NCBI GenBank assembly: GCA_022574495.1
Contig: JACZRW010000003.1
Coordinates: 1 to 44,260, forward strand
Direction: 5' to 3'
From: Patescibacteria group bacterium
GTDB taxonomy: Bacteria > Patescibacteriota > Microgenomatia > Woykebacterales > RBG-16-39-9b
Length of the DNA: 44,260 nt
A model generated the notes under the pieces. That model was given only the letters and a program-made list of their open reading frames with translations. It was not told the origin of the DNA and did not search any database. A program made the translations under genes and the position numbers. Below are positions 12,648 through 17,889 of this stretch, in pieces (position 1 is the stretch's first letter; each line of letters begins with the position of its first letter).

Positions 12648-12875
12648 TTAATCTTCTGGGAGAGCGTCAAATTTCACTTTGAAATCATTCATATATTTCT
12701 TTACCGCTTCAGGCCCAGTGTTCGTTTCTACCATTTGTTTCATTTTATTTTTGTGAGCATCATCATTGGCGCTCATTGCGTGTTCTTGGCTATTTTTCAT
12801 CATTTCTTCTGGTGTTTCTCCTTTAATTTTTACATCACAAACACCGTCTAGTTCTTTACAAGTCATAGATTTCAT
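12648..12875 (-). CDS. DUF1059-family small metal-binding protein
   Basis: MKSMTCKEL.GVCD....GET.EEMM....H pattern, SD AGGTGGTG. Confidence 0.8.
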   Translation of the reverse strand: MKSMTCKELDGVCDVKIKGETPEEMMKNSQEHAMSANDDAHKNKMKQMVETNTGPEAVKKYMNDFKVKFDALPED

Positions 12876-12965
12876 AATTATTCACCACCTTTCTCATATT
12901 GGGTATTATATCAATTGAAGGCAAGTAGGTAATAAAAAAGTAGACTTAGTCTGATATACTGTTTG

Positions 12966-13258
12966 TGAGCTGGAGGGAGTAGGTTAAGGAAACGCTCAAA
13001 GAGCGGAATCCAAGTGTCTGGGCACCCTGACGCCACCAGAGTAAGGTTGTCAGGATCCTACCTCCTCCCGCTTTCATAACGGAGAGAGAAGTTGCAGAAC
13101 GAGATACCACTCCCTTTTCTCGTTAGTCGGTATACCCGTACCGCACTGCAACCTCACTCTACGGGCTTGGTGTACACCTTGAGCGTCTGTGTACTTCAGG
13201 TTCCGTTGGGCCCAGTGTGTGAGTGAGTGGCTACAACCCCTCGCACGCACTGGGTTCT
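12966..13258 (+). ncRNA. Candidate structured ncRNA of about 290 nt, unassigned
   Basis: GC-rich with no ORF in the track. TATACT at 12955-12960. Four stem domains and two loop-loop complementarities. Confidence 0.65.
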
Positions 13259-13332
13259 AATCTCTTTCCTAAATATTTAAAATCAGCGGGCTAAGAGGTT
13301 TGATGTTGTCTTTTCTGACAATATAGCTTCAG

Positions 13333-13371
13333 TGGTGAACCAGGATGACCTCGGCCACTTCAATCGCTATA
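13333..13371. repeat. att-like motif, variant class (TGGTGAA...TTCAATCGCTATA)
   Basis: Colinear match to 41979-42017. Confidence 0.7.
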
Positions 13372-13412
13372 ACTTCCTTGACATTATTCGGATTATCGTA
13401 TATTCTGAAAAT

Positions 13413-13670
13413 ATGAAAAGTGTAGTGATTGTGCGCAATCGAGGTCAAATAACAATCCCTGATCCTATTAGAAAAACTGTTGGATGGGTTAACCCCATGT
13501 CGGCAGTTTCAATTAGCGTGGTTAAACCTGATGAAATCGTTTTGAGACCTCATCAGAATAAGTTGGATTGGGATCAGATTTGGAAAAATATTAATGCTTC
13601 CAGAGCAATATCCGGAAAGGGAGATGAAAGTGGCTATGATTTTCTAAAAAAAGATCGTAGATCTCATTAA
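13413..13670 (+). CDS. AbrB/MazE/SpoVT-family antitoxin (VapB-like)
   Basis: RNRGQITIP..IRK motif. TTGACA(13378)-17-TATTCT promoter implies a leaderless ATG at 13413. Confidence 0.85.
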   Translation: MKSVVIVRNRGQITIPDPIRKTVGWVNPMSAVSISVVKPDEIVLRPHQNKLDWDQIWKNINASRAISGKGDESGYDFLKKDRRSH

Positions 13671-13673
13671 CCA

Positions 13674-14093
13674 ATGGACACCTTAGTTGTCGATTCTTCA
13701 GTAATTACAAAGTGGCTGAACAAGAATAATGAGAAAAACATAGATAAAGCGGATTTAATTCTCGAAGATACTCATAAAGGTAAGGTAGAATTAATCGCTC
13801 CCGAATTGGCAAAGTACGAGGTTGGAAATGTACTTCTTACTGGCAAGAAATTAGTTCCTAAAGAAGCAAACATTTCTCTTGGTACCATCTATTCCCTTCC
13901 AATTACTTTTGTTGGTGAGACTGAAGATTTGGCAAAACAAACCTTTAACCTTGCCTTTAAGCACAAGGTTACCTACTATGATGCTTCTTTTATGTCTCTA
14001 GCCAAGCAATATAAGGCGACTTTGATTACAGATAATATTAAACATCAAGGTAAGTCTTTTGAAGTTAAGACCGTTTCTTTACAAAACTACTAA
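13674..14093 (+). CDS. vapC: PIN-domain VapC-family toxin
   Basis: VVDSSV..KW, YEVGN, TYYDA.F..LA, LITD motifs, directly after the AbrB gene. Confidence 0.88.
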   Translation: MDTLVVDSSVITKWLNKNNEKNIDKADLILEDTHKGKVELIAPELAKYEVGNVLLTGKKLVPKEANISLGTIYSLPITFVGETEDLAKQTFNLAFKHKVTYYDASFMSLAKQYKATLITDNIKHQGKSFEVKTVSLQNY

Positions 14094-17734: not shown

Positions 17735-17810
17735 TGGTGAGCCAGGAAGGACTCGAACCTTCAACCTATTGCTTAAGAGGCAATTGCTCTGCCGATTGAG
17801 CTACTGGCCC
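17735..17810 (-). tRNA. tRNA-Lys(CTT)
   Basis: 76-nt cloverleaf, anticodon arm ATTGC-CT-CTT-AA-GCAAT, GTTCGAG T-loop, encoded CCA. Confidence 0.96.
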
Positions 17811-17813
17811 ACG

Positions 17814-17889
17814 TGGCGCCCCAGGAGGGATTCGAACCCCCGACCTTGACGTTAGAACCGTCCTGCTCTATCCGCTGAGCTACTGGGGC
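17814..17889 (-). tRNA. tRNA-Arg(TCT)
   Basis: 76-nt cloverleaf, anticodon loop GT-TCT-AA, GTTCGAA T-loop, encoded CCA. Confidence 0.93.

Follow-up and report, generated by a model that had tools for sequence, protein, structure and literature searches.

Whether the G+C-rich DNA between two gene cassettes of this Patescibacteria genome encodes a structured noncoding RNA (ncRNA), and whether such an RNA would belong to a known class, is the question raised by this locus. The window, that is, the whole 44,260-nt stretch of DNA analyzed here, comes from a genome of 0.935 Mb (67 contigs, 38.7% G+C, 94% complete). It carries genes for UvrABC, ATP synthase, H+-pyrophosphatase, and similar products and is otherwise ordinary chromosomal DNA of an ultra-small bacterium; no reverse transcriptase, Cas, or TnpB/IscB genes were found in it. 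A sequence-only reading had proposed that the locus holds a multi-domain ncRNA on the plus strand, with kissing-loop contacts and a possible switch. Herein, we examined its fold, its likeness to known RNAs, its relatives, and its neighbors.

The intergenic island folds better than shuffled sequences on the plus strand

The candidate RNA sits in a 537-nt intergenic gap bordered by a DUF1059-like gene and by an AbrB/VapC pair, and it lies upstream of the latter on the same strand (Table 1). The G+C fraction was 0.507–0.560 over 12950–13249, compared with 0.307 just upstream and 0.400 just downstream. When the plus strand of 12955–13258 was folded, the energy was −128.9 kcal/mol versus −99.0 ± 5.8 kcal/mol for dinucleotide shuffles (z −5.18), and none of the 100 shuffles folded as well. 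The minus strand gave a z-score of only −2.98, with 1 of 100 shuffles as good. Each domain folded alone was also better on the plus than on the minus strand, with z-scores of −4.08 versus −3.00 for domain I, −4.59 versus −2.99 for D2, −2.28 versus −0.68 for D3, and −4.36 versus −2.27 for D4. The energies of the separately folded domains were −47.9 kcal/mol for domain I (z −4.08) and −81.2 kcal/mol for domain II (z −5.08), and in neither case was any of 200 shuffles as good. Among the 60 G+C-richest genome gaps free of ORFs of at least 90 aa, the z-score of this fold ranked second.

Table 1. Positions of the candidate RNA, its predicted parts, and the neighboring genes in the window
Feature	Position	Strand	Remarks
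DUF1059-like gene	12648–12875	−	One border of the gap
Extended −10-like element TGATATACT (TG, one base, TATACT)	12952–12960	+	Without a good −35; read from the sequence
Domain I: composite closing stem (12961–12983/13057–13080), four-way junction, three hairpins	12961–13080	+	Pair probabilities 0.74–0.99
Hairpin H1: GGA/UCC, CGCUC/GAGCG, loop AAA, internal loop AA/GAA	12988–13011	+	Probability 0.98–0.99
Hairpin H2: GUGU/GCAC, loop CUGG	13014–13025	+	Probability 0.95
Hairpin H3: CCUGACG/UGUCAGG and a weak ACC/GGU extension	13026–13054	+	Probability 0.94, extension 0.41
5′ strand GGAGAGAGA of the domain II closing helix	13081–13089	+	Pairs with 13261–13269, probability 0.97
Arm D2: GUUGCAG/CUGCAAC stem, hairpins AACGAGA/UCUCGUU and CGGUAU/GUACCG	13091–13152	+	z −4.59, 0/200 shuffles as good
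Unpaired C-rich segment CUCACUCU	13153–13160	+	In domain II
Arm D3: hairpin with 11-nt loop CUUGAGCGUCU	13161–13206	+	z −2.28, 4/200 shuffles as good
Arm D4: 20-pair hairpin	13208–13257	+	z −4.36, 0/200 shuffles as good
Pyrimidine-rich tail	13258–13272	+	UCUCUUUCC (13261–13269) is the 3′ strand of the domain II closing helix, or a terminator tail
AbrB promoter TTGACA-17-TATTCT	13378–13406	+	Near-consensus, 10/12 matches (consensus scan)
AbrB/MazE-type antitoxin and PIN (VapC-type) toxin	ATG 13413 to 14093	+	Other border of the gap

The minimum-free-energy fold contained all the helices named in the sequence-only reading, their mean pair probabilities being 0.85–1.00. Their motifs were located at 12972 and 13057 (GGAGGGAGTAGG/CCTACCTCCTCC), 13091 and 13146 (GTTGCAG/CTGCAAC), 13098 and 13118 (AACGAGA/TCTCGTT), 13128 and 13139 (CGGTA/TACCG), 13172 and 13189 (GTACAC/GTGTAC), and 13211 and 13240 (CCCAGTGTGTGAG/CTCGCACGCACTGGG), and TATACT was present at 12955. 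The preference for the plus strand, which had been argued from G-U pairs, was borne out by 13 such pairs among the 108 of the predicted fold and by the z-scores of the two strands. When the fold was extended to 13275, an extra 9-bp helix was formed between 13081–13089 and 13261–13269 (probability 0.97), which enclosed D2, D3, and D4. The extended fold consisted of two multi-branched domains, 12961–13080 and 13081–13269. The closing helix of domain II is of low-complexity purine/pyrimidine sequence, and this counts against reading the island as an RNA gene. From the promoter-like element at one end to the terminator-like element at the other, the whole island is filled with predicted hairpins. 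The promoter-like element was read by eye from the letters and is missing from the promoter consensus scan, which demands a −35; the terminator-like element, D4, is probably an intrinsic terminator, as predicted from its hairpin and tail.

The tertiary contacts fared differently. It had been suggested that the loops CCACTC and GAGTGG kiss, and that ACGCTCAA pairs with the loop sequence TTGAGCGT in competition with a local hairpin. In shuffles of the seven hairpin loops, however, a perfect loop-loop match of at least 6 nt arose in 444 of 5000 cases, and some bases of GAGTGG are already paired within the hairpin to which it belongs. Between a loop and any other part, complementarity of at least 8 nt turned up in 203 of 2000 loop shuffles. 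Such chance matches are easy to find because the sequence is rich in GAG/CUC-type runs. Forcing the switch helix (12992–12999/13179–13186) raised the energy from −131.0 to −106.6 kcal/mol. At this cost of 24.4 kcal/mol, a terminator/anti-terminator switch between states of similar energy was rejected. Neither the kissing-loop contacts nor the switch exceeds what chance would give, and both are energetically disfavored.

The candidate matches no known RNA class and is noncoding

A search of the whole window with Rfam 15 (4227 covariance models) returned only two tRNAs at 17738–17889. With the threshold relaxed to E ≤ 10, the region 12850–13400 gave one chance match, to snoR1 (E 9.7), outside the folded core. 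No match in the region reached the gathering score, and the absence of a known family, for which this search had been proposed as a check, was confirmed. ARAGORN found nothing in 12800–13400. The opinion that the element is not tmRNA, RNase P RNA, SRP RNA, or 6S RNA also proved correct. The actual RNase P RNA (C47:2892–3272, 101 bits) and tmRNA (C19:13357–13718, 112.7 bits) are encoded on other contigs, and the models of SRP RNA (RF00169, RF01854) and 6S RNA (RF00013) had no match in the region or the genome. Like 6S RNA, the candidate is stand-alone, highly structured, and a few hundred nucleotides long, and the genome has no recognizable 6S RNA. However, 6S RNA is a rod with a central bubble, whereas the candidate is predicted to form two multi-branched domains; a 6S RNA was rejected on this ground and for want of a model match.

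For SRP RNA, the protein side of the pathway was also searched. The SRP54 GTPase domain (PF00448) and M domain (PF02978) were not found in the genome, and no SRP-GTPase motifs occurred in its six frames, while SecY, used as the control, was found. PF02978 was present in 0 of 31 genomes (30 relatives and this one). SRP RNA was found in none of 31 and none of 101 genomes of the phylum, with this genome being part of each set. The loss of ffh and ffs is described for Parcubacteria in a published account (PMC4508563). A scan for helix-8-like motifs gave unconvincing matches, and a diverged SRP RNA was dropped, Ffh and FtsY being absent. As the whole SRP pathway is missing, the SRP reading was rejected.

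Riboswitch families had no match in the region at E ≤ 10, nor did the self-cleaving ribozymes (hammerhead, twister, pistol, hatchet, HDV-like, hairpin, and glmS). Judged from the sequence, nothing speaks for self-cleavage. In 14 further gaps of the genome that are G+C-rich or structured, Rfam gave no match, and no paralogue emerged. The structural signal is well above chance, and it matches no known RNA.

The coding potential of the region was also assessed. The two longest ORFs, 12946–13110 and 13074–13250, both on the minus strand, had no protein relatives among 5.8 billion clusters, and none of four ORFs had a Pfam match at E ≤ 1. On the plus strand, the only ORF of at least 30 aa starts with TTG and spans 13092–13226, behind the purine run GGAGAGAGA that is paired to the 3′ tail. 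This arrangement recalls a type I toxin mRNA. The hallmark of such mRNAs (hok/AapA-like) is a small, conserved ORF whose ribosome-binding site is sequestered. In a relative from sequencing run X3, the frame of this ORF has a stop as its second codon, right after 13094, and a type I toxin mRNA was therefore dropped. Indels of 1, 2, and 4 nt in D4 of related contigs likewise speak against a reading frame. On these grounds, the region is noncoding.

Domain I is nearly invariant in a relative whose middle is replaced

Parts of the stretch were present in nine marine-sediment sequencing runs from six studies, and contigs of four runs (X1 to X4) were compared. These relatives are short contigs compared through listed differences only; the substitutions and indels given below are the best supported, and 47 further substitution and 14 further indel entries exist. 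Run X1 contained pieces identical to the window, plus variants. In a 439-nt contig of X2, 150 of the 151 bases of 12944–13094 were kept, the one change being G13029A. The next 109 bases (13095–13203), covering D2 and most of D3, were replaced by 113 unlike letters. Over 13204–13382, the contig had 17 changes and 6 gaps, a difference of ~12%, which leaves the 3′ hairpin region ~88% alike. Two X3 contigs had the same pattern. The replaced middle has sharp edges at 13094/13095 and 13203/13204, and the likeness of the related contigs begins at 12933–12944. Other contigs were alike over shorter stretches: an X1 variant only over 13046–13103 with 10 changes, and an X4 contig over 12998–13133 with 6 changes and 14 gaps. 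One X1 contig joins 12967 to 13189.

The substitutions were then placed on the predicted fold. Among those listed, five fell at paired positions, of which four turned a G-C into a G-U pair (C13246T, C13264T, C13268T, and C13269T) and one broke its pair. The latter is G13029A in H3, which turns the G-C pair 13029–13051 into A.C. As the single change in domain I, it counts against the RNA reading, in that it breaks rather than preserves a G-C pair. The other listed substitutions inside the RNA lie in the D4 apical loop and a 3-nt linker. The D4 hairpin is kept in the relatives despite indels of 1, 2, and 4 nt, and C13246T is the G-U change within it. The three tail changes of the X2 contig (C13264T, C13268T, and C13269T) make the tail U-richer, as it is in the X2/X3 relative, with all three pairs kept as G-U. 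On the opposite strand, the four G-U-retaining substitutions would be A.C mismatches. The C-to-T changes of the tail also fit a simple drift toward a U-rich terminator tail, and recent recombination, rather than selection, could account for the near-identity of domain I.

Beyond these contigs, no homologue was detected. BLAST searches with the region found none in 60 related genomes, and a single-sequence covariance model of domain I found none in these 60 relatives or in 150 further genomes of the class. An exact 26-mer had no match in JGI metagenome contigs, a 20-mer none in GTDB genome contigs, and a 17-mer none in IMG/VR; blastn against phage records was likewise negative. A degenerate 21-mer had one match in GTDB contigs, which fell within coding sequence of an unrelated Spirochaetales MAG and was ascribed to chance. 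Even the closest member of the family is far removed, with 41% identity between the uridine kinases, and sequence-level searches are therefore expected to fail beyond the genus. The uridine-kinase neighborhood of that member contained tRNAs only and no match to the domain I model. Because no homologue was found in the 60 relatives and the 150 further genomes of the class, an essential housekeeping role of the candidate RNA seems unlikely. Among the runs recorded as RNA, none contains the stretch; run X2 is labeled metatranscriptomic WGA and is probably DNA. Keyword searches of the literature on structured RNA and SRP in CPR, as opposed to sequence searches, did not find this RNA.

The locus is independent of both neighboring cassettes

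To one side of the gap, the DUF1059-like protein had 14 close relatives. Relatives of 66–77% identity occurred in metagenome contigs both of 36–37% and of 61–62% G+C. Domain I was absent from the relatives of this gene in four metagenome contigs, and it was also not found in 15 metagenome loci with the gene. The best domain I covariance-model match in these 15 loci had an E value of 0.098 and fell in an unrelated stretch of 60% G+C, and the best blastn match had an E value of 0.23. To the other side, other metagenome contigs share the AbrB/VapC cassette from 13333 or 13378 onwards only, with different sequence upstream, and their depth is 5–10 times that of the RNA region. Because of this boundary and this depth, the RNA and the AbrB/VapC pair are not one unit. 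The RNA locus is thus flanked by two cassettes that are each mobile on their own, with the DUF1059-like gene to one side and the AbrB/VapC pair to the other, and it is independent of both. A riboswitch or attenuator leader was rejected, as the downstream operon has its own promoter and is not conserved together with the RNA.

No partner protein gene linked to the candidate RNA was found. Imperfect inverted repeats flank the locus, pairing 12906–12920 with 13358–13372 (13/15) and 12881–12888 with 13332–13339 (8/8); a rough estimate puts the number of equally good repeats expected by chance at about one. Only one copy of the element occurs in the genome. A MITE or other small mobile element was rejected on the basis of this single copy and of the short and imperfect flanking repeats.

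C-rich loops resemble the 16S 3′ end without enriched pairing to start regions

Among the 57 unpaired bases of domain II, C is frequent and G scarce (U 20, C 19, A 14, and G 4). In D2, the hairpin AACGAGA/UCUCGUU has a 13-nt C-rich loop, UACCACUCCCUUU, at 13105–13117. A likeness to the 3′ end of the organism's 16S rRNA, GGAUCACCUCCUUUCU, is seen both in this loop and in the domain I stem, on its 3′ strand (GGAUCCUACCUCCUCC...). The predicted pairing of the loops with 1383 translation-start regions was no stronger than that of shuffled loops; for the D2 loop, the mean energy was −5.57 versus −5.59 kcal/mol for its shuffles. In X3, the replacement is otherwise unlike but retains a UCCC run within its first 30 letters.

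Staphylococcus aureus RNAIII and Rsa-type sRNAs carry C-rich (UCCC) loops. The candidate is like them in its multiple hairpins, in having an own promoter and terminator (both predicted for the candidate), and in its C-rich, anti-Shine-Dalgarno-like loops, of which the 19 C against 4 G among the unpaired bases of domain II are a measure. However, there is no sequence or model similarity to these RNAs and no enrichment of pairing with ribosome-binding sites, and the C-rich loops of the candidate lie in its fast-evolving part.

Alternative explanations

By weight, the rivals of an RNA gene run from a hotspot remnant through an RNAIII/Rsa-like regulator and a toxin-antitoxin leader to a diverged housekeeping RNA. 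The heaviest of them is still unlikely. In this reading, the island is no dedicated RNA gene but nonfunctional, G+C-rich foreign DNA, a remnant or junction left between the two mobile cassettes at a hotspot of gene swapping, and it is hairpin-rich by accident or through DNA-level recombination signals. The behavior of both neighbors as separately mobile cassettes fits this, as do the wholesale replacement of the middle in a sister strain with its sharp edges (13094/13095 and 13203/13204), the imperfect inverted repeats around the locus, and the failure to find homologues beyond close strains. However, DNA palindromes would give neither a z-score of −5.2 with strand bias nor 13 G-U pairs, and the hairpins tile the island between promoter-like and terminator-like elements. 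The keeping of 150 of 151 bases over 12944–13094, against a difference of ~12% downstream in the same contig, also argues otherwise, as do the single copy of the element and the roughly one flanking repeat expected by chance. A protein gene in decay left no trace in the region.

A base-pairing regulator of the RNAIII/Rsa type, whose C-rich loops resemble an anti-Shine-Dalgarno sequence and would pair with the ribosome-binding sites of target mRNAs and block translation, is a distinctly improbable reading. It draws on the C-rich, G-poor unpaired bases of domain II, the likeness of the D2 loop and the domain I stem to the 16S 3′ end, the UCCC run kept in the X3 replacement, and the stand-alone gene layout. 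But the loops were predicted to pair with start regions no better than shuffles, and the likeness was spotted post hoc in a purine/pyrimidine-rich sequence. The seeds of sRNAs are usually their best conserved part, whereas here the supposed seed falls where the RNA is least conserved. A structured 5′ leader of the AbrB/VapC operon, with D4 as a regulated terminator and the ACGCUCAA/UUGAGCGU pairing as the switch, has very little probability. The RNA does lie upstream of AbrB/VapC on the same strand, D4 is terminator-like, and the 8-nt complementarity is present. Yet AbrB has its own near-consensus promoter (13378–13406, 10/12), the cassette is shared elsewhere only from 13333 or 13378 at 5–10 times the depth, no riboswitch family matched at E ≤ 10, and the switch helix, besides its cost of 24.4 kcal/mol, does not exceed chance. 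Least credible of all is a known housekeeping RNA, such as 6S or SRP RNA, that has diverged beyond recognition by Rfam. That 6S and small and large SRP RNA were undetected anywhere in the genome would leave room for it. Against it stand the multi-branched fold in place of a 6S-like rod with a central bubble, the lack of a GNRA-capped helix, and the absence of the SRP protein machinery itself from a genome in which SecY is present. The relatives, moreover, should carry such an RNA, but domain I was not found in them.

Proposed organization of a lineage-restricted RNA gene

The locus is best explained as an independently transcribed, structured ncRNA gene of ~300 nt on the plus strand, confined to a narrow marine-sediment lineage of Patescibacteria (CPR); we put the probability of this reading at roughly 0.55. 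The multi-domain, plus-strand ncRNA proposed earlier is supported by the fold statistics, the composition, the strand-specific G-U pairs, the lack of a conserved ORF, and the uneven conservation. The candidate is probably a lineage-restricted, stand-alone structured ncRNA gene whose transcription we infer. We likewise infer the ends of the RNA, its action in trans, and its binding role. Transcription would start at about 12961–12968, at the extended −10 promoter TGATATACT, and end at about 13258–13272, at the D4 hairpin and the pyrimidine tail. The RNA would then fold into its two multi-branched domains. Domain I, a 120-nt four-way junction, may be the functional core and act in trans, most likely as a platform to which a protein or another RNA binds. 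We take it as the core because it is kept nearly letter for letter while the contig diverges by ~12% downstream and unrecognizably in the middle of the element. The fast-evolving domain II, comprising D2, D3, and D4, might be a stabilizing, terminating, or specificity module.

Orphan structured bacterial ncRNAs include the raiA motif RNA, OLE, ROOL, and GOLLD. Like them, the candidate is a stand-alone G+C-rich island in an A+T-rich genome, and it shares their length of several hundred nucleotides, elaborate multi-helix fold well above that of shuffles, and orphan function. However, their covariance models did not match it even at E ≤ 10; it is shorter than OLE, ROOL, and GOLLD and very narrowly distributed, and those four families are defined by covariation, whereas its structure comes from a single-sequence fold.

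Ultra-small CPR bacteria have very few recognizable regulators and RNAs; therefore, an elaborately folded RNA gene of 300 nt that is kept in a 0.94 Mb genome likely matters to the cell. The candidate would join a growing number of lineage-specific structured RNAs of the phylum. Its practical value is limited for now, as it is known from one genome of an uncultured organism and a few sediment metagenomes. The near-invariant 5′ domain beside a replaced middle, if real, would suggest that the RNA is modular, with one part serving as a constant binding platform and the other being variable.

A bolder version of the preferred reading, to which we give a small chance, is that the candidate represents a new two-domain “double cloverleaf” class of CPR RNA, in which an invariant 5′ four-way-junction scaffold is joined to an exchangeable module of ~110 nt that serves as a strain-specific specificity cassette. 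The swap of D2-D3 between sister strains for an unlike sequence of nearly equal length would be an exchange of this cassette, by a logic comparable to that of guide RNAs or decoys. The 5′ domain, mimicking the 16S 3′ end, might in such a class titrate a ribosome- or rRNA-directed factor, for example, a PIN-type toxin.

Genomic neighborhood of the RNA locus

The candidate structured RNA gene lies between a small DUF1059-like gene and an AbrB/MazE-type antitoxin gene paired with a PIN (VapC-type) toxin gene. The antitoxin/toxin pair was common to other contigs of the marine-sediment sequencing runs only from position 13333 or 13378 on, and the contigs carrying it had 5-10 times higher depth. Together with its own promoter, this late onset of likeness at higher depth argues that the pair is a mobile toxin-antitoxin cassette. 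On the other side, the DUF1059-like gene shared 66-77% identity with relatives on metagenome contigs of ~36% and ~61% G+C alike, and therefore seems, from these sequence comparisons, to move between very different organisms.

Two short, imperfect inverted repeats were found on either side of the RNA locus: one at 12906-12920 and 13358-13372 (13/15 complementary), and one at 12881-12888 and 13332-13339 (8/8 complementary). Their right arms coincide with the points where likeness to other contigs ends. By a rough estimate, about one inverted-repeat pair of such quality is expected by chance.

Features of the window and of the genome (contigs labelled C)
Feature	Location	Strand	Remarks
DUF1059-like gene	window 12648-12875	-	relatives at metagenome loci L019-L022
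AbrB/MazE-type antitoxin and PIN (VapC-type) toxin pair	window 13333-14093	+	own promoter 13378-13406
Adjoining tRNA genes, Lys and Arg	window 17735-17889	-	ARAGORN, genome-wide scan
ORF-free gaps with strong folds	C66:9273-9614	-	fold z of the six gaps -3.9 to -7.1
	C11:3996-4300
	C1:3336-3588
	C12:4950-5263
	C24:22500-22756
	C42:369-616

Likeness of the RNA to the 16S rRNA 3′ end

Two stretches of the RNA, 13050-13076 and 13105-13119, resembled the 16S rRNA 3′ end of the same organism, GGAUCACCUCCUUUCU (1247-1262 of locus L049). In the predicted fold, one of them pairs with a strand containing GGAGG and the other is exposed in the 13-nt loop of domain II. A target scan with the loops of the RNA revealed no enrichment.

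SRP pathway and other structured regions of the genome

As judged from homology searches, this genome and its relatives seem to lack the SRP pathway. Covariance models RF00169 and RF01854 detected no SRP RNA in the genome, and SRP RNA was found in none of the 31 genomes comprising it and 30 relatives, nor in any member of a set of 101 genomes from the phylum that likewise counts this genome. Neither the GTPase domain nor the M domain of SRP54 was found in the genome, and the M domain was likewise detected in none of the 31 (0/31); SecY was found. Loss of the SRP pathway has already been published for Parcubacteria (PMC4508563).

The tRNA pair accounted for the sole Rfam matches of the window. 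Elsewhere in the genome, the six strongly folded gaps had zero Rfam matches at E<=0.01, and most look like long terminator-type hairpins. The gap on C11 contained two copies of a direct repeat of ~55 nt. At C66:9533-11453, a 1.9-kb contig end had 61% G+C, compared with 38.7% for the genome, and gave no rRNA or other Rfam match; it could be of foreign origin or a contaminant introduced at binning.
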